A stretch of 37,358 nucleotides of DNA, from UHGV virus genome UHGV-0063828. One strand, 5' to 3'. A program made the translations under genes and the position numbers. Of this stretch, positions 3,109 to 36,104 are shown in pieces. Position 1 is the stretch's first letter; every line of letters begins with the position of its first letter. This stretch comes from a virus. Below the pieces are notes generated by a model that worked only from the letters and a program-made list of their open reading frames with translations, was not told the origin of the DNA and made no database searches.

Positions 3109-3626
3109 CTCGAATCCTCCTAAATCTGGATTAATGATTTCTTAAAAAAGAGCGTTAACCGCTCACTATTATTTATATGGGGATTGTATTTTATTTTTCA
3201 ACCCCTCACATTTATCTCTTATATATGTATTTATAACAGAGATATGTTAAAATGTTATTCAGATGTTATCAGGCGTGTTAAATGTGTTAAACCACAGCAC
3301 GAATTGCTAAAGCGAAGAACACGATTTAACCAAATTGATGTTTATTCAATCAATTTAGAAAAAGGCATAGCACTTTTTGCTAAAGCGGTGAGCATTAATT
3401 GAGCTATGAATTGTAAAGATTTGTTACAAGATTTTCTCTCAGATCCAAATCTTCACAGACATATAACAATTTAACACGGTGATAACAATAGGAAGGAAAA
3501 TCGGTAAATTTTCACTTTCAATACAAATATTATACCACATTTTTCTCGAATTGTCAAGTATAGCACCAAACCTACATAGTGTCAAGAAAGGACTTTCAAA
3601 CCTACACTAGCCCTACACTATGAAAA

Positions 3627-4973: not shown

Positions 4974-5003
4974 TTGACAAAATTTTATGACTTTTTTATG
5001 ATT
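4974..5003 (+). promoter_or_regulatory. Sigma70-like promoter TTGACA-N18-TATGAT with adjacent palindrome TTGTCAA-N6-TTGACAA (4961-4980)
   Basis: Hexamers read directly; located upstream of the gene at 5059. Confidence 0.45.
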
Positions 5004-6325: not shown

Positions 6326-6356
6326 TGCCCCTGAATTTCAGGGGCTTTTTGTTTTC
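6326..6356 (+). terminator. Intrinsic terminator after the Rha-like gene, built from the iteron motif
   Basis: GCCCCTGAA-T-TTCAGGGGC followed by TTTTTGTTTT. Confidence 0.7.
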
Positions 6357-6625: not shown

Positions 6626-6660
6626 AGTCATTTTCTCCAAATTAAAGTGAATGTTCACCT

Positions 6661-7263
6661 TTATTTAGAGGACTTAGATTTTATAGGAAAAAGTTCTCCA
6701 TCGTCAATACTCATAAAGAACTCAACCTTAATCCCGTACTTCTTCAACCGTGAATAATATGTACCCCGACTTATATCAACCTTGCGAAGCACTTCAAAGA
6801 AGGATTTAGGATCGTTGTAATAGTGGCTGTACTTCACGTTAGCGAGTTCAACGAATAGTTCCCTTGTATCACCATAGCCTTTCTTGAAAGCGATGTTACG
6901 AGGCATTGTAACAGCCATATTATCCCGTGTCTGTTTCAACACTTCTCGGATCGGCTTCCACTGCAACCGATAGATAGGACCGTCATCAATGCGATAATAA
7001 CGCTTGATATCAAAATCAAACCATTCACGGACTCGCTGAAACTCTGTCTGTGATGTTCGGTGCTTCTTAAAGAAGTTATGGATATCTGTATACCCATGAT
7101 CGCGATACAACTCGATTAAAATTTGCTTCGCTTCTTCGCGACTAAAGCCGGATGTTGTGTAATCAGTCTTCTTGTGATGGTGCTTAACTGGCAAACGATA
7201 TTCATGATCGGTACAAGACAAGGCTAATTCTAATTCATCTCTTTCTTGCTGATTAATTAGCAT
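6661..7263 (-). CDS. Hypothetical protein (200 aa) with repeated HTH-like modules
   Basis: Strong AAGGAGGG SD; internally repeated helix-rich units; divergent from the large terminase gene. Confidence 0.5.
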
Positions 7264-7350
7264 ACACCCTCCTTAAATCTTAATACCCGTATTTATCAAA
7301 AAATCAACAATTTAATAAATACCTTCATATTTCGTAATGAGGGTAATTAC

Positions 7351-14257: not shown

Positions 14258-15091
14258 ATGAATATTACACAAGATAACTTAGACATTTTCACGGGGTCGC
14301 ATGTTGAAGTCTCCGTGTCTACTATGGTGGATAACCAGCCGGACTTTTTCGATCCTGCATTTAGTCCTATCGAGAACATCGCAGCATTCCCGACGATAAC
14401 CGAATCTACAGATATCCAGACGTTAGAAGAGTATGATCAGGACGCTACGGGTAAACTTGCTGGCTATCGTAAACTGGAACCGACAACACTCACGTTAAAC
14501 CGTGTTCTGGATGACGAACATCAAGCAATGTTGATGAAAGCGGTAGAGGATAAAACACCTTTACGCTTCCGTATGTTCTATGTTGTGAACTCTGGCTATA
14601 GTGCTGCTAACACTGGTTACTATGTCATCTATGATGCTTACGTCACATCACATAAAACCCGTGGTAGTGATAACAAAGCTGTAACACTGGAATTTAAACT
14701 TGAACCAGATGGCGGGATTCTAGCAAGGGGTATAGCGACCGAGGGAAAAATTCTGCGACAAGGTGATTTTGGTATTGGTGCTGGTGTACATCCATTCACT
14801 GGTCCGATTGATAGTGAAGCATTAGCCGGAAACCGTTTCGTAACTTATCAGGGATCGAGCGCATCTAATCCATTTAGTGCTGATACTTCACTAATTCACG
14901 TTCAACCTAATGAAGATGGTGGATGGCAATTAACTTGCACCGCTTCCGGCGCACCACGTTTACGAGTTCGCACAGTCCAGAAAGACGGTAATTCGGGATG
15001 GGTGAAAGTGTATTCCACAGAAGAAAAACCGACACCAGCCGAGATTGAAGCCGTTTCTATCCATGACCGGATCGACTTCGGGGAATACTGA
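14258..15091 (+). CDS. Tail- or fibre-associated structural protein (277 aa)
   Basis: AAGGGG SD; C-terminal EEKPTPAEIEAVS motif also present inside the downstream tail fibre (GDKPTPAEIGAYS); ordinary codon usage argues against it being the major tail protein. Confidence 0.5.
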   Translation: MNITQDNLDIFTGSHVEVSVSTMVDNQPDFFDPAFSPIENIAAFPTITESTDIQTLEEYDQDATGKLAGYRKLEPTTLTLNRVLDDEHQAMLMKAVEDKTPLRFRMFYVVNSGYSAANTGYYVIYDAYVTSHKTRGSDNKAVTLEFKLEPDGGILARGIATEGKILRQGDFGIGAGVHPFTGPIDSEALAGNRFVTYQGSSASNPFSADTSLIHVQPNEDGGWQLTCTASGAPRLRVRTVQKDGNSGWVKVYSTEEKPTPAEIEAVSIHDRIDFGEY

Positions 15092-20236: not shown

Positions 20237-20545
20237 ATGAATATTAATGAAATGTTAGCCGCACTCTCTCCGAAACGTGAATCTTTGACCATCGGTGGAT
20301 TTACTTTCTATGCTCGCCCTATGTCAGTAAAAGAATTTAACGAACATGTTTTCAATACCGATAAAGAAGATCGTGATGAACGTTCTATTCTTCGTTGTAT
20401 TGAAGATGAAGACGGTAAGCCGGTATTTGAATCTATGGAACAAGTTAAGGCACTGTATACTAACGTCCGCAGTGAATTAATCGGTTTGGTTGCTCAAGCA
20501 TCATTGATGCAAGATCCGGCAGTAATTGAAAACGAGGTAAAGTGA
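20237..20545 (+). CDS. Tail assembly chaperone (gpG-like position)
   Basis: AAGAGGAA SD; ~100 aa acidic protein between tail tube and tape measure. Confidence 0.6.
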   Translation: MNINEMLAALSPKRESLTIGGFTFYARPMSVKEFNEHVFNTDKEDRDERSILRCIEDEDGKPVFESMEQVKALYTNVRSELIGLVAQASLMQDPAVIENEVK

Positions 20546-20916
20546 ACCCGCTTCTGAATTTCTACTTTCGGCAAATGATGCGATCGGGGCTTAGTAAAGA
20601 TGAAATGGATAATATGCCAATCACTCTGTTTTGGAAATTATACATTTTCGACACCTACTTAGAACCACAAAGCCCCGCGTTTCATGATATGCAGAATGCG
20701 ATGTTGCAATATTCCATGTATATGACGTCGCAAGGAATGACACGCGAAACTGCACGTAAACTCAAGCCTAGCCAATTCCAATTAATTAGAGAAGAAAAAC
20801 TCTTTAAAACTAAAGAAGAACTGGAAGAAATTGCACGCAAGAAAGAAGAAGAACGTAAAGCGGCAATGATGAACATGTTCGATCCATCTTTGCTTGAGAA
20901 ACTCAGAAGCGGTTAA
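20542..20916 (+). CDS. Second tail assembly chaperone (gpT-like position)
   Basis: GTG start overlapping upstream stop (GTGA) with GAGG SD; in -1 frame relative to the upstream gene. Confidence 0.55.
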   Translation: MNPLLNFYFRQMMRSGLSKDEMDNMPITLFWKLYIFDTYLEPQSPAFHDMQNAMLQYSMYMTSQGMTRETARKLKPSQFQLIREEKLFKTKEELEEIARKKEEERKAAMMNMFDPSLLEKLRSG

Positions 20917-20927
20917 AGGGGTAATTT

Positions 20928-23357
20928 ATGACAAGACATATAGTAACAATGGAAGGGGATAATAGCGGCTTAAGGAAAAGCACAAATCAAGCAATTGATA
21001 TGCTTGATAACCTTGCGGATAAGGCATCTAAACTTGATTTTTCTGGTGGCTTATCTAGTTTAGGTAGCTCTCTCAGGGGATTGGGTGGATCTGCTAGTCT
21101 TGCCGTTGGTGGTGTTCTAGGTGTCACAGGGGCAATGGTTGGACTGGTTAAAGTTGGTGCTGATTACGTTAAACAGTATTCAGAAGTATCTAAGGCGACC
21201 GGACTCTCGATTGAATCCCTTCAAAGACTAGAAAAGGAATTTTCTGGCACTGGCCTAACAGTTGAAAAATTTGGTGATATCAACAAAGACACCTTAGATA
21301 AAATGGGGGATGCATGGGCTAACGGTGGTGGTATTGCCGATGACTTAGAATCGGTTGGGCTTAAGTTAGAAAACTATGCTCACTTCATGACAGATCCGCA
21401 AGGTGGTATGAAAGCGGCGATCCAAGTGTTCTATGACATGAAGAAAGCCGGAAAATCAATGGCTGAAATCAAATTCATGATGGAATCTTTAGCCAGTGAT
21501 TCAAGCCATATGACCAGCCAGCTTGAGAAATATAATAGTGCTCAAGAAGCGATGACCGCTATCCAGAATCAATCTGTTAAAGTCACCGAAGAAAACGCAA
21601 AGAAATTTGATAAATTCTCTAAGAATATCGATACTTTGGAAAATAACCTGAAAGGCGCAGCTATGACCATTTCTGGTCCTTTGGTTGATAGCTTAAACTG
21701 GTTATTTGACTGGTTTAATATTGATTGGGAAAAGAGTTCTCTATTCAGGGCATTAGACCGACTGAATAAAGAAGGTGCGACCGCTACGGGTGGTATTCTT
21801 AACGCCAACCATAAAGACGCTCAAAAGATTATTGACAAGTACAATAAAGAAAAGCGTTGGAATAATCTGGCAGATTGGGAAAAGGCCGCGATCCGTGGTG
21901 CTGGTGTCGATCCTCGTACTGCTGGCTTTGATGTAGAAGGATTTAAGAAACGTTTTGGTGGGTCTTATAAGAAAAATGGTGCTCTGATTGTCGTAGATGC
22001 TGGTGAACATCTGACACGCAAGGCAGATCCTAACACTGATTTAACTCTACCAAATAAACCAGTAAGACCAGAATCATTGGGTAAATCTGGCAACGAGAAG
22101 AAAGCCGAGGAAGAAGCCAAAAAGAAAGCGGAAGAGGCAGCTAAAAAGGCTAAGGAAGCCGCAGAAAAAGCACAGAAAGCACGCGAGGATGCAATCAAGC
22201 GACTGAATGCACTTGATGTTAAATTGCAAGGGCAAGTTGCAGCGTCTATCACTTCTCAAAATAGCCAGTTGCAAAACAGCTTAAAAGATGTGAACGACGC
22301 GTTAGCTCTGGGCTTAATCTCTCAGGAAGACGCAGCCGCGAAACGCCAGGCGCTAATCGATCAGAATACTGAAAACGTATACAAAATGGTTTTAGGTGCT
22401 GATCCGATTGATGCTCTGAATGCTTTAACACAATTGCAACAAATCAGGGACAACGAGCTAGAAAGCCATAAACGTTTACTTGATGGTAAAGCTATCTCCT
22501 ACGAAGAATATATGCGTCGTGTGAACGATACCGAGCAAAACTATTCTCAGATTGAAAATTCTTTACAGGGAATGGATGGTTATAAAACCAATCAATTAAC
22601 TAGTGGTTATGATTATCAAGACTCAAATAATCCGTTTGCTAAATTTAATGCAATCGATAAAGAGAAATCGGATGCTGAACAAGATTATAAGACCGATAAA
22701 CTCAAGATTGACGGTATTAATGATCCGGCTAAACGGATGGAAGCATTAGAAAAACTCAATGAAAACCATCAAAAACGGATGGCTGCAATTGAAAAGAAAT
22801 ATGCTGATGCTCGCCAGTCAATAGCCGATGATATGTATGGCGGTTTTGCTGCTGCAATGACTCTCTTCGGGCAGGAAAACACTAAAGCTATGCAGATGGC
22901 TTTCACTGCTCATAAAGCATTCTCCATTGGACAAGCGACGGTGAACATGTGGACGGCTGCTACCGATGCATGGAACGATCCGACCAACGTAACCACAGGT
23001 CAAAAAATCGCGGCTGCTGCATTGGCTGTTTCTCAGAACATGGGGAGCATCGCAAACATCAAGTCTACTAACGTTAGCGGTATGGCTCATGATGGTATTG
23101 ATAACATCCCTCGTGAGGGTACATGGTTGCTTGATAAGGGTGAACGAGTAGTTGATCAGCGTACTAACGGTGATTTGAAAGACTTCCTTGCTGCTCAAAA
23201 ATCAGGCGGTGGTAACTCTCAGCCGATTGAAGTTAATGCGCCTTTGAACATTAACGGCAACGTTAATAGCTCAGACAAGATGGTCATGGATGCTATCAAA
23301 CGTCACGCTAAGTTAGTTGCTCAGGCGGTAGAAGACGCACAACGCCGTAAGATGTAA
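20928..23357 (+). CDS. Tail tape measure protein
   Basis: 809 aa, long helical low-complexity regions (KKAEEEAKKKAEEAAKKAKEAAEKAQKAREDAIK); canonical position after chaperone pair. Confidence 0.85.
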   Translation: MTRHIVTMEGDNSGLRKSTNQAIDMLDNLADKASKLDFSGGLSSLGSSLRGLGGSASLAVGGVLGVTGAMVGLVKVGADYVKQYSEVSKATGLSIESLQRLEKEFSGTGLTVEKFGDINKDTLDKMGDAWANGGGIADDLESVGLKLENYAHFMTDPQGGMKAAIQVFYDMKKAGKSMAEIKFMMESLASDSSHMTSQLEKYNSAQEAMTAIQNQSVKVTEENAKKFDKFSKNIDTLENNLKGAAMTISGPLVDSLNWLFDWFNIDWEKSSLFRALDRLNKEGATATGGILNANHKDAQKIIDKYNKEKRWNNLADWEKAAIRGAGVDPRTAGFDVEGFKKRFGGSYKKNGALIVVDAGEHLTRKADPNTDLTLPNKPVRPESLGKSGNEKKAEEEAKKKAEEAAKKAKEAAEKAQKAREDAIKRLNALDVKLQGQVAASITSQNSQLQNSLKDVNDALALGLISQEDAAAKRQALIDQNTENVYKMVLGADPIDALNALTQLQQIRDNELESHKRLLDGKAISYEEYMRRVNDTEQNYSQIENSLQGMDGYKTNQLTSGYDYQDSNNPFAKFNAIDKEKSDAEQDYKTDKLKIDGINDPAKRMEALEKLNENHQKRMAAIEKKYADARQSIADDMYGGFAAAMTLFGQENTKAMQMAFTAHKAFSIGQATVNMWTAATDAWNDPTNVTTGQKIAAAALAVSQNMGSIANIKSTNVSGMAHDGIDNIPREGTWLLDKGERVVDQRTNGDLKDFLAAQKSGGGNSQPIEVNAPLNINGNVNSSDKMVMDAIKRHAKLVAQAVEDAQRRKM

Positions 23358-23361
23358 TTAA

Positions 23362-23406
23362 AGCCCCCATAGTCATAAATAATCATAAAACTATGGGGGC
23401 TTTTCT
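23362..23406 (+). promoter_or_regulatory. Long hairpin whose 3' arm contains the only SD-like sequence of the downstream gene
   Basis: AGCCCCCATAG (23362-23372) pairs with CTATGGGGGCT (23391-23401); ATG at 23407; related hairpin CCCTCATA/TATGGGGG at 30128-30149 precedes ATG at 30156. Confidence 0.5.
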
Positions 23407-23967
23407 ATGTTCAAATCAAAGAATATTAAAATCACAGATTTTACTCTTAAATCAAAACAGCCTTTCTTCAAGGCGCAATCTATCTCCGGTAAGTTCCAGC
23501 GTCGCTTTACTGGCATCCATTTTTACGAAGCAGAATTTACCGCGAATTACATGGCTCAGGATATTAACGAAGTAAAAGAATTTGTAGCACGTCACCTTTT
23601 TGGTCGTCCTTTTAGTGTGCCACTGTCTTACTTTTCAAAATATACAGGTGATGTACGCCAGATGGTTACGGCTGCTGCTGGTACTGCTCGCGGTGGGCGT
23701 AAGGTGAGAATCTCCAACTTCACCGGAACACTGAAAGCGGGAACTATCATCCAGTTTGAGAACCACAAGAAAATCTACACGATCACCGAAGATGTGAAAT
23801 CAGGTGGTGAAATGAAACTCTTCCCTAACTTGCGTCAGAACGTCCTGGCGGGTGAGGTGATCAAGTATCAGAACGTAGAAGGTGAATTTGTTCTCAAAAC
23901 TGAAAATATCGATTGGAAGATCGCCCAGATTGGCAAGATGAAATTTGAATTAGTGGAGAATGTATAA
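23407..23967 (+). CDS. Minor tail protein (tail-tip, gpM-like position)
   Basis: First gene after tape measure; its only SD-like run (GGGGG) lies in the 3' arm of an upstream hairpin. Confidence 0.55.
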   Translation: MFKSKNIKITDFTLKSKQPFFKAQSISGKFQRRFTGIHFYEAEFTANYMAQDINEVKEFVARHLFGRPFSVPLSYFSKYTGDVRQMVTAAAGTARGGRKVRISNFTGTLKAGTIIQFENHKKIYTITEDVKSGGEMKLFPNLRQNVLAGEVIKYQNVEGEFVLKTENIDWKIAQIGKMKFELVENV

Positions 23968-24666: not shown

Positions 24667-25086
24667 ATGCTAAAAACTAGGCTTATCACTGATTACATCA
24701 ATTCTTTAATAGGTCAGGAGTTCGTTCAAGGCGAGAATGATTGCAATCTAATTGCATGTAAGATCATCGATATTCTCGCTGGCACTGACCTATATAATTC
24801 TCTTTATAAAAAATATTCAACTAAAGAAGAAGGCTTGAAAATCTGCAAAGAATTAAGCGGATACACAAACATCCTTCAACCAATTAAGAAACATTTCAAA
24901 TTAGTCACTGATGATTTACAGGACGGCGACTTACTGGTCACAGCCCACAAATTAGGAAACCGCAAATATTATTCCGTAGTTCCTCATTATTCCGGTTATG
25001 GCCTCGTTGAAGAAGATGGTATCTGGATGACCATTCCTGTTTCAGACATTGACTATGAACAAGTTTATAGATTCGGGGGTGAATAA
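24667..25086 (+). CDS. Tail-tip protein with NlpC/P60-like Cys/His motif (gpK-like position)
   Basis: Start placed at ATG 24667 with GGAGGT SD; ENDCNL...DGDLLVTAH...PHY suggests a Cys-His peptidase fold. Confidence 0.5.
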   Translation: MLKTRLITDYINSLIGQEFVQGENDCNLIACKIIDILAGTDLYNSLYKKYSTKEEGLKICKELSGYTNILQPIKKHFKLVTDDLQDGDLLVTAHKLGNRKYYSVVPHYSGYGLVEEDGIWMTIPVSDIDYEQVYRFGGE

Positions 25087-28000
25087 TGGGATTTGAAGTA
25101 TTGGTAGGCGCGGTTATTGCTGGTGCGTCTGCTGGGATGGCTGCTGCTGCAACATTTTCTGTTATGACCGCAGTCGCTATCGGTATGGCTGCTGGTGCAA
25201 TGACCTTGATCGCTTCCACTGTAGGCGCACCAAAAACACCTAAAGTACAAAGCCCAGATAATGCGGTGACACTAGGAACATCAAACGATCCTAAAACAGT
25301 ATTACCCGTTCTTTTCGGTACTACCCGAACTGGTGCAATCTGCGTTTACAAAGCAATTTCACAGCGTGAAAATAACAAACTGGTACAAATTTTTGCTATT
25401 TCAGAAGGTGAGATCGATCACTTTAAAGCACTGCACATCGATAATAAAAACGTTCTCATTAGTCAGAATATGACAATTCGTGATGGTATTCTCGATAAAG
25501 GAAACATTAAAGACGAATACCGCAAAGTGTTAGAAGTCGAGTTTCGCACTGGTAAAAATCCTAACACTGCATTGGATCTGGCTAAACATCATTTGGGCGC
25601 TGATTGGGATGATCGGTATCAGGGTAACGGCATTGCGACCATGTGTATTGTTTTACGTCGTGATGACAAATCTCTTGCTGCTGGTGTTGATATTCTCCAG
25701 CCAAATAGCCAGGTAGCAGTAGACGTTTGCGGCCTTAAAATCCGTAACCTTGAAACCAATGCTATTGAGGCTAGCACTAACGGCGTGGATCAGATTTTCC
25801 ACTACCTAACAAATGAAAAATATGGCTTATCCGTACCAATTGAAAACATTAACGTTGATTCATTCCTGAAAGTACGTAAACAAGTACGCCAGATGGATCT
25901 ACATTCAAACGGTGCATGTGATCCGAACGCCAGCTTTAAAGAGAACTTGACTAATCTTATGCAGACTTTCGGCGGGGTGATGTTCGAATCCTTTGGACGT
26001 ATTACGCTGAAACTGGATGCTCCTGATATTGTTAAGCATACCTTCAATGAAGACAATATCATGATGGGTAAGGTATCACTGAAAACAGGTGGCACTAACG
26101 GTTATTTCAATACCATTAACGCGATGTATCAAGAACCATCAATTGACTATTCAGAGCAAATGCTACGTTATCCGGCTGATGCTGAAAACGATGCTACTGT
26201 TCGCGCAGATGGTCGAATTATTGCTAAGGATGTAGAATATCGTTTCGTTAAGTCTAAAGATCAGATTGATAAACTCGCGAGCATTGAGCGAAATAAATCT
26301 CGTATCACTCAGGTTATCAGCTTTATGACTACTGACGCATTCACTGCCGAAGTTTGGGATGTTATTAGCGTTACCTATGATGAATTGAAACTGAATAATT
26401 CACTTTGGCGCATTACTGCAATTGATCGTTCTATTGATTCTGGTATTGCTGGGATGATGACTATCACCGCTACAGAATATAATTCTCAGGTTTATACTGA
26501 CCTGAACTATGCGGCAACTCCAGACAATAGACCAAGTGGTTTACCGGATTCAATGACAGTACAGAAACCGACTAATTTCAGAATTAAGGCAACTGGTGAG
26601 ACAATCCACGGTAAGAACGTTACTTTAACATGGGATGCACCGGAAGATTTTAACCGCTACGGCTTCCAGATTGATTATCGTGTGAGTGGATCACCTAACT
26701 GGATTAAGCTGGGACAGACTTCACAGCAAATTTTCAATATCAATGCACTGACAAAAGGTCGCTCCTACGATTACCGAGTTTGTGCTTTCGGTATTATTGC
26801 TCGTTCCGAATGGGTGGAACTGGTTAACCAGAATCCAGAAGTTACCTATGAATTGCCGACTCCGGTTATTCGAATCAAAAATCAGGGTAGCACGCCTGGT
26901 ACTTTCGAAGGCAATGATCTGATTATCGAATGGGAAAATCAGCAAGCCTTAGATGTGGTTATCAACGGTGAAACTAACAAGTTTAGTGACCTGTTTGAAG
27001 CCTACATTATCAAGGTAACTAACAAGGCTGGTAAGTCTATTCAGTACCGTACCCGCGATCCTGAATCATGGACCTATACGCTTGATATGAACCAGTTTAA
27101 CGGCCTTTCCCGTGAATTGACGGTAGAAGTATCAGTCAAGGGCTATAACAACTCAGAGAGCGCCCCAGCGCGTTTAGTGGCTATTAACCCACAGCATAAG
27201 CCAATGAAAGGTTTTAGTGCGCGTGGTGGCTTTAATACTGCGTTTGTTAGCTGGGCGGATGACGTAGAACATGACTATGCAGGGTCAATCATCCAGTATG
27301 CAACCGATAACACTTTCTCAGATGCAAGGGCAGTAAGCACGAATAGTGTTAGCCATACTTCCTTTGATTTGGCTGACGGTGATTATTATATCCGTGGTGC
27401 TCACTATGATATTTTCGGTATGGATGATGCTGTTTGGTCTGAACCGTATTTCATGCAAATGAAATCTACCATTAGTTGGGACGATCAGGACAAAGAAGCA
27501 CTGGAAGACCTGATTGGTTTACAAGATCGCTTAGATGAAACCATCGCGGATGCTATTGCTCAAGCTGGCGCTAATGCCGATGCTAAAATTGATGCAATGC
27601 ATAAGCAAATCACTACCGAAACAGGGCAGACGGTCCAAGCCTCAGCCAATACCTTAAAGAGTCTGATTGCTACCAGCGAGCAAGCTAGCTCCACTAAGAT
27701 TGATCAGGTTAAAGCTGAACTGAAAGGCGATATCACCAAAGAAGTTAGCGCATCCGCTACTACCCTGAAACAAGCAATTGCTACCAGTGAGGCAGCAAGC
27801 GCAAGTAAGATTGATCAAGTTCGGGTAGAAATGGATGGCAAGATTGCTGGTGTGAATCAGGAAGCAGATGTAAAAATCGATGCTTTGAAGGGAACCATTA
27901 ACAGCAAATATAATCTGGCGGTTAATGCAGATGGTCGCGTGGCTGGTATTCACATGAGCGCAACCAACGATCCGGCGCAACCGACGAGAATCATCTTTAC

Positions 28001-28862
28001 GGCTGATAAAATCGCGGTAGCTCCACAGAACGGATCGGAAGTATGCCCGTTTGGCATCGAAGATAACAAAGTTTATCTCGATAATGCGATGATTCGTAAT
28101 GCTGCAATTGGCACAGCCCAGATTAGTGATGCTAGTATCACCACGGCTAAGATCGGCACAGCCCAGATTAACGGCGCTCACATCCAACACGCACAGATCG
28201 GAACAGGTCATATCATTGATGGCTCTATCGATAATGCTAAAATTGGTAACTATATCCAGTCTTATAACTGGAATGGTAACGATGGATGGTATATCGGCAA
28301 AGATGGCACTTGTCATTTTAGACACGCTAATATTCGTGGTCATTTGGTGGCTGATTCCGGAGAAATGAACAACGTAACGATTAATTCAAGTTGCCGCATT
28401 TTGGGTATGCTTGATGCTAATCAGGTGCGTGGTGACTTCGTGAAAGCTATTGGTCGTCGATTCCCACATTGGGACGAAAACCCATCATTGGGCTACCCCG
28501 GTTATCCGCAAGGTACAATCACTGTTCGAATTGAAGATGATCACCCGTTTGATCGTCAGATTATCGTTCCGGCTATTAGCTTTGGTGGTCTTAATGCGCG
28601 TGAAGGCTCGAATAACAATACTTACTATGATAACTGTCGCTTGATTGTTCGCAAGAACGGTGCTGAATTATATAACCGTGCATATGGTAGACAGACTGGA
28701 TTGTATAGTGCTGTTATTGATATGCCAGCCGGACACGGACCAGTTACGCTAACTTTTGAAGTAAGTTCAAGCGCAATCAACAACTGGACTCCCAGCACAT
28801 GGATCAGCGATCTTTCTGTAATTGTTACTAAGAAAGCCGCGACTGGTATTTCTGTTTCTTAA
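25086..28862 (+). CDS. Central tail fibre / host specificity protein: gpI-like N-terminal segment fused to gpJ-like body
   Basis: 1258 aa; N-terminal Gly/Ala-rich hydrophobic segment resembles lambda gpI C-terminus as recalled; fibronectin-III-like repeats (LTWDAPEDF...YDYRVCAFG); C-terminus DDHPFDRQIIVP...ATGISVS resembles lambda J as recalled. Confidence 0.85.
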   Translation: MGFEVLVGAVIAGASAGMAAAATFSVMTAVAIGMAAGAMTLIASTVGAPKTPKVQSPDNAVTLGTSNDPKTVLPVLFGTTRTGAICVYKAISQRENNKLVQIFAISEGEIDHFKALHIDNKNVLISQNMTIRDGILDKGNIKDEYRKVLEVEFRTGKNPNTALDLAKHHLGADWDDRYQGNGIATMCIVLRRDDKSLAAGVDILQPNSQVAVDVCGLKIRNLETNAIEASTNGVDQIFHYLTNEKYGLSVPIENINVDSFLKVRKQVRQMDLHSNGACDPNASFKENLTNLMQTFGGVMFESFGRITLKLDAPDIVKHTFNEDNIMMGKVSLKTGGTNGYFNTINAMYQEPSIDYSEQMLRYPADAENDATVRADGRIIAKDVEYRFVKSKDQIDKLASIERNKSRITQVISFMTTDAFTAEVWDVISVTYDELKLNNSLWRITAIDRSIDSGIAGMMTITATEYNSQVYTDLNYAATPDNRPSGLPDSMTVQKPTNFRIKATGETIHGKNVTLTWDAPEDFNRYGFQIDYRVSGSPNWIKLGQTSQQIFNINALTKGRSYDYRVCAFGIIARSEWVELVNQNPEVTYELPTPVIRIKNQGSTPGTFEGNDLIIEWENQQALDVVINGETNKFSDLFEAYIIKVTNKAGKSIQYRTRDPESWTYTLDMNQFNGLSRELTVEVSVKGYNNSESAPARLVAINPQHKPMKGFSARGGFNTAFVSWADDVEHDYAGSIIQYATDNTFSDARAVSTNSVSHTSFDLADGDYYIRGAHYDIFGMDDAVWSEPYFMQMKSTISWDDQDKEALEDLIGLQDRLDETIADAIAQAGANADAKIDAMHKQITTETGQTVQASANTLKSLIATSEQASSTKIDQVKAELKGDITKEVSASATTLKQAIATSEAASASKIDQVRVEMDGKIAGVNQEADVKIDALKGTINSKYNLAVNADGRVAGIHMSATNDPAQPTRIIFTADKIAVAPQNGSEVCPFGIEDNKVYLDNAMIRNAAIGTAQISDASITTAKIGTAQINGAHIQHAQIGTGHIIDGSIDNAKIGNYIQSYNWNGNDGWYIGKDGTCHFRHANIRGHLVADSGEMNNVTINSSCRILGMLDANQVRGDFVKAIGRRFPHWDENPSLGYPGYPQGTITVRIEDDHPFDRQIIVPAISFGGLNAREGSNNNTYYDNCRLIVRKNGAELYNRAYGRQTGLYSAVIDMPAGHGPVTLTFEVSSSAINNWTPSTWISDLSVIVTKKAATGISVS

Positions 28863-30117: not shown

Positions 30118-30155
30118 TCCATAAATACCCTCATAGAAACTTATGGGGGTATAAC

Positions 30156-30503
30156 ATGGCTAAAAATATTTTTACTGAATTTCCTACTTATCCGGTCGAT
30201 CAGCTTTCCGGTATTTTTATTAATGGCATTAGCCCAGAATCAATGACACATGATTTTGAGGCGAAGAGAGTTAAACATAAACAATATAAAGAATGTATCC
30301 GCGATCATGAAAAAGGGACCGTGTTTTGTGTCGCTACATTGGCTAAACGTCCTAAATATCGTTTTCGTGTAGGGCAAGAAGTCGATGTAGTTAATCCTTA
30401 TAGCTTTAACTGTCTGGGTGATGCACGCGCGGTGTGTGTAGGCACTGCTCCTTATTATATCAAGGGTATGCGCTTTATTGGTTATATCTTCGAAATGATC
30501 TAA
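30156..30503 (+). CDS. Hypothetical protein (115 aa)
   Basis: SD lies in the 3' arm of an upstream hairpin; no recognisable motifs. Confidence 0.5.
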   Translation: MAKNIFTEFPTYPVDQLSGIFINGISPESMTHDFEAKRVKHKQYKECIRDHEKGTVFCVATLAKRPKYRFRVGQEVDVVNPYSFNCLGDARAVCVGTAPYYIKGMRFIGYIFEMI

Positions 30504-30512
30504 GGGGGTAAT

Positions 30513-30866
30513 ATGTTAAGCAAACATTTTTCTCGCAAGGAATTTAAATGTAAATGCGGAAAATGTGATTATGATACAATCGACGCTGAATTACTGGTAA
30601 TTCTTGAGGATGTACGCGAACACTTCGGGAAACCAGTAATTATTAACAGTGGGAACCGTTGTCCGACTCATAACAAGAATGTAGGCGGTGCAACCAACAG
30701 CTATCACGTTCGAGGCCGTGCGGCTGACATTGTGATCAAGGGTGTCTCCCCTGATATTGTCCATGCTTATCTTGATGGGAAATATCCTACTCAATACGGC
30801 TTAGGCAAATATAAAACCTTTACGCATATCGATTCCAGATCGAAAAAATCACGATGGAATGGATAA
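30513..30866 (+). CDS. Peptidase M15-family protein, putative endolysin
   Basis: FSRKEFKCKCGKC...INSGNRCPTHNKNVGGATNSYHVRGRAADI matches the zinc peptidase M15 / YcbK-like signature as recalled; AAGGGGG SD; bidirectional terminator downstream. Confidence 0.6.
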   Translation: MLSKHFSRKEFKCKCGKCDYDTIDAELLVILEDVREHFGKPVIINSGNRCPTHNKNVGGATNSYHVRGRAADIVIKGVSPDIVHAYLDGKYPTQYGLGKYKTFTHIDSRSKKSRWNG

Positions 30867-30897: not shown

Positions 30898-32388
30898 TTA
30901 TATAGCAATTGTTTTAGTTGCATAGCTGAACTTGTCGGTTAGATAATAGCGGATTCTCTCAAGTGCATGTTTTACCGCATAATTTTTATGCTTGACTTTT
31001 CCGTTACGACCGAATATACACAAATGATCGATAAGATCCCAGACCGTTGCAATGTCTTTCGAACCATGTTTACGCAATGCACGACCGATACTCTGACGAA
31101 CGATAGTTGATTCCTTCACTGGATGACCGAAAATAACATGGTGCAAATTCTTAATTGAAACACCAGTAGAGAACACACCATAAGACGCAACACAAATGAT
31201 CCCGGTGTCACCCTCCGCCATTTTCTTAAATTCATCACGTTCTTCTGTCTTAACTCCACCGTCAATATAATAAACCTTGTCGTGTACCTTCTGTAACGCG
31301 TCATACATAAGTTTTCCGTGCTTAGTATTGCGGAACATCAGGAATACGTTTTCGCCCTTCTTAGCGAGTTTTAGCGCCAAATTACAAGCAAACTTATTTC
31401 GTCGTGGGTTAGATGTAATATACTTGATCTCTTCCGCATATTCTCTCCCCTTAACCGCGCTACATTCCTCATCGGTATAACGAAGGAAAAGACAGTTGAT
31501 TTTCAGTTTCGTCACTTGACCTTCTTCCATCAGGCGGTCAATACTCACGATCTTAGAAATATCACCGAAAAGCCCGACATACTGCATTAAATGGCACTTT
31601 GATTCTTTCGGGGAACCAGTCATACCGATCTTAAACTGGCAATGATTCATTCCGTTAATGATATTGGTAATATTTTTGGCACTAGCCTTATGCGATTCAT
31701 CAACTATCAACATTCCATATTGTCGGAACCATTCAGGAGGCATCTTGCAAGCTGATTGCCAGGTACTAACCGTGATTAACCTGTCTCCCGGATGTTTCCC
31801 GCTACCACTCATCATTGTATGGATTGCTTCATAAGGGAATAACCGATAATCGATGAAATCATCCCTCATTTGAACCACTAGCGATGTAGTCGGGACAATG
31901 ATTAACACCTTTCCGGTGTAATGCTCTAAGTACCAACGAGACAGCATACAAGCAATCAATGACTTTCCGGCACTGGTAGGAAGAACCAGCATTCTACGGC
32001 GATTGTGGATACCCTGAAAGACTGCTTCACGCTGATACCAGTAAGGATTGATTTTATTGGAACCGGAATACACTTCTAAAGAGTCAATCCACGAATCAAT
32101 CTGTTCTTTGGTTACATCTTCCTTCTCAAGTAATCGCGGGTCAATCCAGACTGAATAGCCCATATTTTTAACGAAGACACCCAATGTTTTTAATAGTCCA
32201 ATTGGTAGGGTATTTTCATGCGTAAACAGTCTTATTCGTCCATCCCAGCCGGAATACTTGTAGCGGGGGCTAAACCTAGCCCCTTCAACCTCAAACGAGA
32301 AATAATCTCTTAATTCCATTCCGATAGAAGGAGAGCAATCAACCTTAACGAAACTGTAATCTTGAAAATGAATTTTAATATCTTGCAT
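30898..32388 (-). CDS. SF2 helicase, T4 UvsW-like
   Basis: Walker A LPTSAGKS, DESH box, TGSP, QSIGRALR motifs; N-terminus MQDIKIHFQDYSFVKVDC resembles T4 UvsW as recalled; start placed at ATG 32388 with GGAGTGG SD (track start 32397 is GTG). Confidence 0.65.
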   Translation of the reverse strand: MQDIKIHFQDYSFVKVDCSPSIGMELRDYFSFEVEGARFSPRYKYSGWDGRIRLFTHENTLPIGLLKTLGVFVKNMGYSVWIDPRLLEKEDVTKEQIDSWIDSLEVYSGSNKINPYWYQREAVFQGIHNRRRMLVLPTSAGKSLIACMLSRWYLEHYTGKVLIIVPTTSLVVQMRDDFIDYRLFPYEAIHTMMSGSGKHPGDRLITVSTWQSACKMPPEWFRQYGMLIVDESHKASAKNITNIINGMNHCQFKIGMTGSPKESKCHLMQYVGLFGDISKIVSIDRLMEEGQVTKLKINCLFLRYTDEECSAVKGREYAEEIKYITSNPRRNKFACNLALKLAKKGENVFLMFRNTKHGKLMYDALQKVHDKVYYIDGGVKTEERDEFKKMAEGDTGIICVASYGVFSTGVSIKNLHHVIFGHPVKESTIVRQSIGRALRKHGSKDIATVWDLIDHLCIFGRNGKVKHKNYAVKHALERIRYYLTDKFSYATKTIAI

Positions 32389-32957
32389 TAGTTCCACTCC
32401 ACACTTGCAATATTCTTTATATTGTTTAGTGATTTATTGCAGTAGTGGAATGTTTCAGTTTTACCGTATTCAATCCCGCCTATACCCACATCCAGTAATC
32501 TCTTTATTGCTCTTTCAGTGGCTAAAGCATGTTTCATTGATGGCATTTCACCAGCAAAGACAATATCAAAGTTATGACCGGGATTGCGTACACCCAGATT
32601 AACACGTCGCTTGATGATTGACTTTGTAACACCAAATTTACCAATATCCCCTGATTTCATTACATAGAGATAAGGCACACCCGCTTTATATTGAAAGTAA
32701 TCACTTTTGAGACATGCACAGCGTTTACCTTCATTAAGCAGGTTGGTAGCTGATTTGTCGGCTCTATTGCCGCATCTGGTACATGTAAGAGCAATTCTTG
32801 AATGAAGCCCTTTAAACTCACCCAGAAAGCCATGAAAGACTAATGGTAAGTCCTTCTCTTTGATGTGAGTCAGAATGCGTTGTTCTAATGCCGATGGAGT
32901 TACAGCACGGGAGGATTTAGGAGTAAAAACAATATCTTTAGCCATTACTGGAATCAT
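32388..32957 (-). CDS. Zinc-ribbon plus T5orf172 (GIY-YIG-like) domain protein
   Basis: CTRCGN...CACLK cysteine pairs followed by YLYVMKSGDIGKFGVTK...ERAIKR...GKTETFHY; stop overlaps the helicase ATG (TAATG). Confidence 0.55.
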   Translation of the reverse strand: MIPVMAKDIVFTPKSSRAVTPSALEQRILTHIKEKDLPLVFHGFLGEFKGLHSRIALTCTRCGNRADKSATNLLNEGKRCACLKSDYFQYKAGVPYLYVMKSGDIGKFGVTKSIIKRRVNLGVRNPGHNFDIVFAGEMPSMKHALATERAIKRLLDVGIGGIEYGKTETFHYCNKSLNNIKNIASVEWN

Positions 32958-33110
32958 ATAGACCTCACTTTTTAACTTATAGGCATAACCTCAATATGGT
33001 TGGTTTGGGATTTAGGGTCGCGTATTATACACATCCAGATAGAGAATGCAATAGTAAGACAATTTTCTCTAATAAATAGTAGTGAGCTTATTATTTTAGA
33101 GGAAACTACT

Positions 33111-36051: not shown

Positions 36052-36088
36052 CAAAAACGCCCCTACCGTGTATTATAACGATAGGGGC
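36052..36088 (-). terminator. Minus-strand terminator between secreted-protein gene and integrase start; loop contains TATAAT
   Basis: On minus strand GCCCCTA...TAGGGGC stem followed by GTTTTTGTTT; candidate integrase promoter overlaps. Confidence 0.45.
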
Positions 36089-36104
36089 ATTGGTTAGTAA
36101 GTCA

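Follow-up and report, generated by a model that had tools for sequence, protein, structure and literature searches.

In bacteriophage T4 the genes e, soc, 49, I-TevI and segB have been shown to be controlled by a stem that hides the Shine-Dalgarno (SD) sequence or the AUG on long transcripts, while RNAs that start at a late promoter embedded in the element are translated; the literature (PMC3014915, PMC2988022) gives a 100-fold effect of the hairpin for the lysozyme gene e, and places I-TevII, I-TevIII and mobE of phage Aeh1 in the same class. A second arrangement is that of the PeSL cassettes of T4-type phages, short intergenic repeats that recur before unrelated genes and join a promoter to a GGGG...CCCC-type stem-loop, which terminates or attenuates transcription, and to the downstream gene's SD and ATG (PMC2839356, PMC4122927). 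Here sequence comparison and RNA folding are used to characterize a hairpin, termed H1, that precedes the distal tail protein (Dit) gene of UHGV virus genome UHGV-0063828, a stretch of 37,358 nucleotides (referred to below as the window) the whole of which constitutes a complete, ~37-kb temperate E. coli prophage. H1 and two further hairpins, H2 and H3, form a small family of sense-strand cassettes that recur before different genes, and the existence of a shared control element that sequesters the ribosome-binding site (RBS) is supported at the level of structure and evolution. Thermodynamics and comparative data point to translational control by these hairpins. More specifically, H1 and H2 are read here as promoter-gated RBS hairpins of the T4 gene e, soc and I-TevI type, H1 being terminator-like as well; this interpretation is put forward at slightly less than even chances.

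H1 occupies the 49-nt gap between the tape-measure stop codon and the Dit start codon, and its parts are arranged as follows:

20928-23357, + strand: tape-measure gene (phrog tape measure, E 1e-65)
23355-23357, + strand: TAA stop of the tape-measure gene, 2 nt before the base of H1
23360-23373, + strand: H1 5' arm, AAAGCCCCCATAGT; the stem is kept with compensatory changes in relatives
23374-23389, + strand: H1 loop, CATAAATAATCATAAA, with an ATAAATA box (23375-23381) inside; [C/G]ATAAATA is found in every relative's loop while the stems vary
23390-23403, + strand: H1 3' arm, ACTATGGGGGCTTT, with the SD GGGGG at 23395-23399; after the arm comes a T-rich spacer, TCT (T run 23401-23404), and then ATG 23407
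23407-23967, + strand: distal tail protein gene (Dit, pb9-like; phrog_1302, E 1.5e-16; PF21430), whose RBS is enclosed by H1

An earlier, sequence-only reading had described an 11-bp stem before this ATG. The sequence is as it was described there, but the stem is longer, the two arms pairing perfectly over 14 bp around a 16-nt loop; and the only SD-like run before the ATG is, as that reading held, the GGGGG of the 3' arm, 7 nt ahead of the start codon. H1 is the longest perfect short-range inverted repeat of the window; by our own arithmetic, chance would supply about 0.005 perfect 14-bp repeats with a loop of at most 40 nt per 37 kb. The minimum free energy of the H1 RNA is -24.7 kcal/mol versus -8.9 +/- 2.6 for shuffled sequences (z -6.1), none of 200 shuffles being as stable. 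The SD is predicted to be paired with a probability of 1.00 in H1 and likewise in H2 and H3.

Conservation of H1 was assessed using 33 near-identical prophage loci from IMG/VR together with a graded series of relatives from E. coli and Salmonella assemblies, whose Dit proteins are 91 to 68% identical. Among the E. coli and Salmonella relatives, with Dit 68-100% identical, there are 19 distinct versions of H1; in none of them is the stem shorter than 14 bp, and the energies range from -17 to -29 kcal/mol. Because paired insertions and deletions (indels) led MAFFT to put the H1 types out of structural register, changes were taken from per-sequence folds and are described here fold by fold. The arms of the types are:

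Type I: 5' arm AAAGCCCCCATAGT, 3' arm ACTATGGGGGCTTT
Type II: 5' arm AAAAGACCCCCTAGT, 3' arm ACTAGGGGGTCTTTT
Type III: 5' arm AAATACCCCCTAGT, 3' arm ACTAGGGGGTATTT
Type V: 5' arm AAATACCCCCTTGGTT, 3' arm AACTAAGGGGGTATTT

The paired changes lead from GCCCCCATAG/CTATGGGGGC through GACCCCCTAG/CTAGGGGGTC and TACCCCCTAG/CTAGGGGGTA to TACCCCCTTGG/CTAAGGGGGTA, so that the types differ by two compensated indels and by one G:C to U:A double change. One-sided changes are of two kinds: a C to U change opposite G, which sets CCCTC against GGGGG both in type IV (L075) and in 10 loci of the 33 close ones from IMG/VR, and a single A to G change opposite U, in type V. Both are transitions, and they yield G.U pairs only in RNA of the + strand. 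This asymmetry of the arms argues for a sense-strand RNA structure rather than for a DNA palindrome or an antisense RNA; a structure in - strand RNA and a cruciform were rejected for the same reason, namely that the G.U pattern fits the + strand only. Non-compensated variants are confined to changes in the length of the C or G run, each in single assemblies. Across relatives the 3' arm always holds the SD, the stem is always followed by 4-5 T, and the loop always contains [C/G]ATAAATA.

Inverted repeats of this sort might, of course, be DNA operators to which a dimeric regulator binds. The half-sites are palindromes of 9-14 bp, a comparable repeat in distant relatives (described below) lies between divergent genes like a classical operator, and an inversion of the H2 loop in one relative (L105) is a DNA-level event. 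Nevertheless, the arm asymmetries are almost all compatible with G.U pairing on the + strand only (CCCTC/GGGGG, CCTTC/GAGGG, CTCTC/GAGGG), the stem sequences of H1 change freely while pairing is kept, and the position of the element is fixed relative to the SD and ATG and not to any promoter. An operator function is accordingly regarded as highly improbable.

The sequence-only reading also pointed to a second hairpin enclosing the SD of the gene that starts at 30156, and suggested a search for further copies. The second hairpin (H2) is present, with a 12-bp stem that includes two G.U pairs, and further copies were found before the large terminase gene (terL) in the window (H3) and before a fibre gene in relatives:

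30121-30127, + strand: ATAAATA box at H2, abutting the 5' arm and overlapping its first 3 nt; invariant in all relatives
30125-30152, + strand: H2, with arms ATACCCTCATAG (30125-30136) and TTATGGGGGTAT (30141-30152), loop AAAC, and SD at 30145-30149, 6 nt ahead of ATG 30156
30156-30503, + strand: 115-aa gene, function not assigned, whose RBS is enclosed by H2; just upstream of the M15 endolysin gene (30513-30866)
7315-7345, + strand: H3, the third copy of the cassette, with box 7315-7321, 5' arm TACCTTCAT (7320-7328), loop 7329-7336, and 3' arm ATGAGGGTA (7337-7345, SD GAGGG), followed by ATG 7351 of the large terminase

The minimum free energy of H2 is -17.8 kcal/mol (z -4.3; 0 of 200 shuffles as stable), and H3 folds with -12.9 kcal/mol. 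An exact 13-mer of H2, AAATACCYTCATA (at 30123), recurs once in the window, at 7317 within H3, where by our own arithmetic about 0.002 further copies are expected by chance. The sequence of H2 is almost invariant across relatives, its 3' arm reading either GAGGG or GGGGG (a wobble change opposite U); the exceptions are one locus with an inverted loop and one with a disruptive G to A change. In the former (L105, ~14612-14660) the loop is flipped from AGAATCT to AAGATTC relative to sister loci, the outcome expected when the arms of an inverted repeat recombine. Conservation of H3 extends over 23 loci, with one wobble-preserving change (CCTTC to CTCTC) and one disruptive A to C change (L084). The fourth member, before the fibre gene of the Salmonella relatives L104-106, has undergone a paired 1-nt deletion (CCTC/GAGG), giving TACCTCAT/ATGAGGTA. 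A role as a holin was considered for the 115-aa protein encoded after H2 and was rejected, as the protein lacks a transmembrane segment.

What unites these hairpins is not what had been proposed at the outset. The shared CATAG...CTATGGGGG design was taken by the sequence-only reading as the mark of a common element; the family exists, but the GGGGG likeness is no evidence for it, H1 and H2 having only about 4 nt in common beyond the SD. GGGG(G)T is the standard SD of this phage, TAAGGGG(G)TAAT..ATG occurring before about a dozen genes, and CTATGGGGG with at most one mismatch is found 9 times versus 4.2 expected (1 of 100 shuffles reaches 9). Hence the GGGGG shared by H1 and H2, being the phage's normal SD, says nothing by itself. 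Their relationship is instead established by the third copy and by intermediate forms in relatives: H1 types III-V start with TAAATACCCCC, which bridges H1 to H2 and H3. Formal pair counting was done only on the alignment of the H2, H3 and fibre paralogues, where 87.8% of cells are paired; sliding the partner by 1-3 columns lowers this to 42-54%. For covariation this alignment scores 0.189 versus 0.129, with 3 of 500 shuffles reaching the score, and four pairs change on both sides, which 4 of 500 shuffles match. The layout of the cassette is an ATAAATA box, a C-rich 5' arm, a loop, a G-rich 3' arm that contains the SD, 5-7 nt, and the ATG. When the genuine gene starts of the window are ranked by SD pairing, those at H1, H2 and H3 come among the highest. 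Rfam covariance models run over the whole window gave no match at the gathering threshold, and a riboswitch or RNA thermometer was rejected, given this result and given that perfect stems of 12-14 bp are presumably far too stable for either.

If the stems are as stable as predicted, initiation from the enclosed SD becomes a problem. De Smit and van Duin reportedly found a roughly ten-fold loss of initiation for each 1.4 kcal/mol beyond a threshold, and with stems of -18 to -25 kcal/mol next to no independent initiation should remain. Because Dit and terminase are nonetheless essential, a release mechanism is required. The lifting of the block is most likely explained by the ATAAATA box, a component that is absent from the sequence-only reading and whose distribution in the window is as follows:

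386(-), 616, 1217, 2814, 3170(-), 3228(-), 4435, 5404, 7290(-), 7315, 19630, 23375, 30121, 33072, 36385(-), both strands: ATAAATA sites from a heptamer search

Non-coding sequence makes up 11% of the window, and all 15 copies, on both strands, fall within it; the average for heptamers of like composition is ~29% non-coding, which puts the probability of 15 out of 15 at about 1e-8 (own arithmetic). Moreover, 14 of the 15 face the start of a gene on the same strand 12-120 nt downstream, the copy at 2814 having no annotated gene nearby, and relatives show the same non-coding, gene-facing pattern. The shorter hexamer TAAATA is 69% non-coding versus 16-30% for most hexamers of the same composition, with further copies after the terminators behind the capsid, tail-tube and tail-tip genes. 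Two promoters are required in the 87 bp that separate the 200-aa gene from the divergent terL; no sigma70-like promoter is present there, but two back-to-back boxes are, at 7290(-) and 7315(+). Within the cassettes the box is invariant in H2 and H3. The T4 late promoter TATAAATA is longer than ATAAATA by one base, and in 7 of the 15 copies the full TATAAATA is present. From its sequence, ATAAATA would be a putative promoter-type element that resembles the T4 late promoter. A sigma70 promoter was rejected as a reading of the box, which lacks the T at -7 and so is not a sigma70 -10 element, and which is accompanied by no -35 element; an RNase E site was rejected on account of its misfit to the RN|WUU consensus. 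Apart from these, the region at 2813-2883 merits mention: there a TATAAATA box (+) is followed by no protein gene, and a 15-bp hairpin (AAGCCTCCCTTGTTG/CAGCAAAGGAGGCTT), which could be a small RNA or a bidirectional terminator, lies ~40 nt downstream.

The position of the box relative to the hairpins suggests how it might act. It occurs with four SD-hiding hairpins of the window, namely H1, H2, H3 and a fourth, H5, which is unrelated in sequence but has the same layout:

33063-33105, + strand: H5, in which TTTTCTCTAA...TTAGAGGAAA encloses the SD of a GIY-YIG/CapR endonuclease gene (ATG 33111); box 33072-33078 in the 5' strand

(The start of this homing-type endonuclease gene is ATG 33111, not TTG 33000; the layout of H5 parallels the regulation of T4 I-TevI and seg.) In H1 the box is part of the loop; in H2 and H3 it adjoins the 5' arm, and in H5 it is contained in the 5' strand. 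A spacing of ~6 nt between box and start is that of a -10-type element, as in T4 late promoters, and a start ~6 nt after the box falls, in H1, H2, H3 and H5 alike, at or beyond the end of the 5' arm; starts 4-8 nt after the box remove the arm. Under the promoter-gate interpretation, then, an RNA entering from upstream would form the stem (-13 to -26 kcal/mol), free 30S subunits would be blocked, and the gene would be silent on read-through RNA. The block would be lifted by a shorter RNA, for which the box would serve as the -10-type element and which would start ~6 nt downstream of it, at roughly 23387 (H1), 30133 (H2) and 7327 (H3). RNA from the gene's own promoter would lack the 5' arm, so that the SD would be open and the gene translatable. 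Predicted read-through leaders behave as follows:

H1 read-through leader: dG -26 kcal/mol, SD pairing 1.00
H2 read-through leader: dG -22 kcal/mol, SD pairing 1.00
H3 read-through leader: dG -13 kcal/mol, SD pairing 1.00
H5 read-through leader: dG -19 kcal/mol, SD pairing 0.66

Short leaders of the same four hairpins that start at +6 to +8 after the box have only about -1 to -5 kcal/mol and an SD pairing of 0.1-0.6; the H5 short leader starting at +4 keeps -9.5 kcal/mol. A shorter RNA is the one release mechanism that fits all copies. Longer upstream transcripts that read through are plausible for H1 and H2, which lie in a long co-directional operon; read-through into H3 would need to pass a terminator at 6327-6345. 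Both the starts at the boxes and termination at H1 are steps that we infer.

Alternatively, the box and hairpin together might be RNA operators bound by a phage translational repressor, as for MS2 coat protein, T4 gp43 and RegA. H2 and H3 are conserved in sequence and not just in structure, AUAAAUA is conserved in the H1 loop, and many early phage ORFs (open reading frames) have no assigned function, all of which would suit a repressor. Yet the box lies in the loop of H1 but 5' of the stems of H2 and H3, which does not fit a single RNA-binding mode but does fit a fixed distance to the SD; the majority of boxes in the genome are without a hairpin; and the stems alone are stable enough to block initiation, so that a repressor is not needed. 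This alternative is therefore thought very unlikely. The hairpins that do follow the boxes at 1217, 5404 and 19630 leave the SD free.

A different release mechanism, coupling, would dispense with an internal promoter. Coupling by hairpin unwinding is classical, MS2 being an example: ribosomes of the upstream cistron would open the stems (tape measure to Dit, orf227 to orf115), thereby tying outputs to one another, while at H3 constitutive attenuation would keep terminase low. The SD does lie within the stem, as in the coupling hairpins of MS2 (coat-replicase and lysis) and of many operons, where the distal SD is paired, and the H1 stem begins 2 nt past the tape-measure stop in the window, in L067 and in L068/76, where terminating ribosomes could also open it. 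The phage, moreover, uses such a device elsewhere, with the upstream stop inside the 5' arm:

6635-6671, - strand: H4, a coupling-type, SD-sequestering hairpin of 19 bp, in which the stop of the 200-aa gene (6663-6661) falls within the 5' arm and the GGAG SD of a 77-aa ORF (ATG 6631) within the 3' arm

H4, which has no ATAAATA box, is a textbook translational-coupling layout; coupling fits it fully and could contribute at H1. As a general mechanism, however, coupling seems inadequate on two counts. The distance from stop to stem varies from 2 to 9 nt across relatives at H1, being 8-9 nt in L069, L075 and L104 (types III-V), and is 6-8 nt at H2; a terminating ribosome reaches ~7-9 nt past the stop, which puts these distances at or beyond its reach. 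H3, furthermore, has no proximal cistron at all, none lying upstream on its own strand for ~1 kb. Coupling also leaves the invariant ATAAATA box and its placement unexplained, and stems of -18 to -25 kcal/mol go far past mild attenuation. Coupling or attenuation without an internal promoter is on balance unlikely, although it retains more weight than the operator readings.

The hairpins may also mark transcript ends. The sequence-only reading had suggested that they might double as partial terminators or RNase processing sites; terminator anatomy is present at H1, with its G+C stem and conserved U4-5 tract, and not at H2, which has no U tract. Six of the 14 pairs of the H1 stem are G:C; a terminator scan missed H1 in the window because of its 16-nt loop, while the H1 of relatives has a 4-bp upper stem and a 6-nt loop. 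After the stem comes CUUUUCUAU, with T4-5 conserved in all types, whereas the tract is absent at H2 (AUAACAUG) and H3 (AUUACAUG). H1 thus shares with intrinsic terminators a G+C-rich stem followed by UUUU(U)CU, a 5' A-tract, and a T run in all relatives, and differs from them in that its 3' arm doubles as the SD of the next gene. It probably attenuates or stops transcription leaving the tape-measure gene, and with the box in its loop it would constitute a terminator-promoter-RBS cassette like the PeSLs of T4-type phages.

Carried further, this observation yields an explanation in which H1 is a leaky intrinsic terminator, H2 and H3 are barriers to 3'-exonucleases or sites for RNase III or E, and overlap with the SD is a by-product of tight spacing. 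In its favour, beyond the stem, T4-5 run and A-tract of H1, are the resemblance of H1 to a terminator of the same phage at 36091-36056, the many G+C hairpins that lie between cistrons of the late operon, behind the capsid, tail-tube and tail-tip genes, several of them with T tracts, and the form of H1 in relatives, where a 14-bp and a 4-bp stem with a 3-nt bulge make about two helical turns, as in RNase III sites. But H2 and H3 lack a U tract, the 16-nt loop of H1 in the window is outside the 3-8 nt usual for a terminator (and H1 was not called by the scan), and the inverted repeat that lies between divergent gene starts in distant relatives would be senseless for a terminator. Nor does spacing readily account for the SD, which is kept in the 3' arm in all H1 types, in H2, in H3 and in the fibre copy, 5-9 nt from the ATG; this is more than a spacing accident. 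Transcript-end elements are therefore an improbable account of the family as a whole. The hairpin at 36056-36091 (-) is terminator-like, stands after an 81-aa gene just upstream of the serine recombinase gene, resembles H1 (GCCCCTATCG/CGGTAGGGGC, then a T run), and has a consensus TATAAT in its 8-nt loop. As a further SD-hiding case it was rejected, the annotated ATG (36039) being 17 nt past the stem, and it is probably a plain terminator.

How closely the promoter gate proposed for H1 and H2 follows its T4 counterpart can now be stated. In both, a stable helix contains the SD (pairing 1.00 in H1, H2 and H3, at -24.7, -17.8 and -12.9 kcal/mol); the box, which in T4 is of the TATAAATA type and lies in the DNA encoding the 5' strand, stands here in a like relation to the 5' arm for H2, H3 and H5 and is in the loop for H1; and one target here (that of H5) is a GIY-YIG endonuclease, as in T4. 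The two differ in that the element here belongs to a temperate prophage of ~37 kb, siphovirus in type and equipped with a serine recombinase, and not to a T4-type myovirus, that no gp55, gp33 or gp45 homologue was recognised here, that the box is ATAAATA, the initial T of the T4 motif being present in only 7 of 15 copies, that the gated genes are structural (terL and dit, with fibre in relatives), and that the three copies here are paralogous in sequence. H1 resembles the PeSL cassettes in that terminator anatomy, with a box in the H1 loop, is followed by an SD and ATG. The early promoters of PeSLs, by contrast, are of the sigma70 class and have both a -35 and a -10 element, and no sigma70-like hexamer pair was found at H1, H2 or H3; the PeSL descriptions drawn on place the SD 3' of the stem-loop and do not describe it as part of the stem, whereas here it is the 3' arm. 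The sole hint here of the recombination or modular shuffling ascribed to PeSLs is the occurrence of the cassette before different genes in relatives.

Distant relatives (group B; Dit 46-50% identical) provide a view of the element in another context. In these, Dit is divergent from a lysozyme gene, and the 48-60-bp spacer between the two is a 10-18-bp palindrome, each arm of which carries, on its own strand, a TAAATA-type box and an SD complement. The spacer thus consists of two overlapping box-SD units, which fits the promoter reading, and it may show how such hairpins arise. In one locus (L038) the palindrome of the divergent spacer is a perfect 18 bp; and in L034-L038, L066 and L072-L074, which are elements of ~34-36 kb, no tape-measure gene adjoins Dit and the tail gene that follows it.

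The design extends beyond these prophages. Scanning IMG/VR with the exact pattern TAAATACCYYC-N6-20-GRGGGTAT returned at least 120 loci, and among the matches listed, 56 of 94 distinct ones have an ATG at most 10 nt after the 3' arm, versus 19% by chance. In Kuttervirus EP75 (NC_049433, 643-678), TGA-TTATAAATACCCCCaaaattGGGGGTATTT-ATG stands between ORF139 and ORF138, and a cassette of the form 'TATAAATA - CCCCC stem - GGGGG - TATTT - ATG' occurs in Kuttervirus phages and in many uncultivated viral contigs (L112-L231). These matches indicate that the design is not unique to this prophage. The ViI-like phages CBA120, ViI and AG3 encode homologues of gp55, gp33 and gp45 (PMC3184105), and CBA120 is a Kuttervirus closely related to EP75. 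A broader proposal can be framed, though it is doubtful: that temperate siphovirus-type prophages of E. coli and Salmonella run much of their expression from a T4-late-like ATAAATA promoter class, read by a sigma factor or activator encoded by an orphan gene, with portable cassettes of terminator, promoter and hidden RBS gating terminase, distal-tail, fibre and lysis-region genes so that each is translated from its own promoter alone and not from read-through RNA, and that the cassette is widespread in Kuttervirus and uncultivated phages.

Several observations weigh against the promoter gate. Promoter activity is ascribed to ATAAATA by inference only, and searches of the prophage ORFs against Pfam, PHROGs, NCBIfam and PDB sequences found no gp55- or gp33-like protein or other sigma factor. 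Motifs rich in A and T are enriched between genes in any case, and the AAATA flank beside the hairpins also complements the U-rich spacer between SD and AUG (TATTT), so that part of the box there could be an extension of the stem. H2 is conserved mainly in sequence and consequently shows little covariation of its own. At H1 in the window coupling alone could suffice, since a ribosome terminating at a stop 2 nt from the stem would open the stem without an internal promoter. Finally, the gate is not universal: in a relative with 56% identity (L070/71) the hairpin after the tape-measure gene, with loop CATAAAT, does not enclose the SD, which is left outside. A literature search for TATAAATA promoters in temperate siphoviruses returned nothing relevant. 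Searches of the early ORFs (Pfam, PHROGs, NCBIfam, PDB sequences and tblastn) gave no assignments beyond Rha/Ant, TerS-like and CapR/GIY-YIG, and sigma-like matches to the AlphaFold model of the 200-aa ORF at 6661-7263 (pLDDT, the predicted local distance difference test, 74.8) are weak.

A hairpin gate as such is a known sort of element; the novel part would be the ATAAATA promoter class, with its factor, in a temperate phage. If the gate works, the terminase nuclease, the tail-tip initiator and the homing-type endonuclease, proteins that are potentially harmful or sensitive to stoichiometry, would be silent on read-through prophage or early RNA and strongly expressed from short late RNAs, without a dedicated repressor. 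For annotation, a hairpin with the SD in its stem beside an ATAAATA box would predict an internal promoter, and apparent terminators inside 'late operons' may be restart points. The confinement of the box to non-coding sequence points to a further transcription factor in a prophage of ~1% of complete E. coli genomes, and the portable cassette, if real, would be a widespread and previously undescribed regulatory module.

Of 5,426 complete E. coli genomes, 56 have a chromosomal segment that matches the tail region of the prophage at 90-99% identity. In strain PigCaeca_2 it lies within ycdX, beside a large serine recombinase, and nearly all of its genes are annotated as 'hypothetical'; this locus (L039) is disrupted by IS1 and IS3. 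A near-identity search of INPHARED phages with the hairpin region found no match, a Dit protein search of deposited phages found only phage DCP80 (43%) and no close relative of the prophage, and a scan of GTDB genomes with the Dit alignment found 1 locus only.

The structural and lysis operon occupies the + strand from 7351 to 30866, in the order large terminase, portal, protease-capsid, a 1172-aa fibre, tail tube, tape measure and pb9-like Dit, and then a tail-tip protein (25086-28862), small membrane proteins, a basic 227-aa protein, the 115-aa protein and the M15 endolysin. Directly before the tape measure, overlapping ORFs at 20237-20545 and 20542-20916 take the position of a tail-assembly chaperone pair, the members of which are usually joined by a programmed frameshift. 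T4-type genes are present in this temperate group (window 30898-32397 (-); L067-L111), namely those for UvsW helicase, UvsY, endonuclease VII, and gp34-like and gp38-like fibre or adhesin modules, and stand beside a lambda-type GpA terminase and a T5 pb9-like Dit.

Clear sigma70 promoters are found in the early region at 3557-3529, 3585-3557 and 4974-5002. Near-consensus promoters face apart at 3529-3585 (-), with TTGACA-17-TATAAT (12/12 matches, with TG), and at 4974-5002 (+), with TTGACA-17-TATGAT, and probably make up an early or immunity switch region. In one IMG/VR contig (L010, 1-60) the end of an IS1 element (…CAGCATCACC) adjoins the H1 5' arm and replaces the end of the tape-measure gene.

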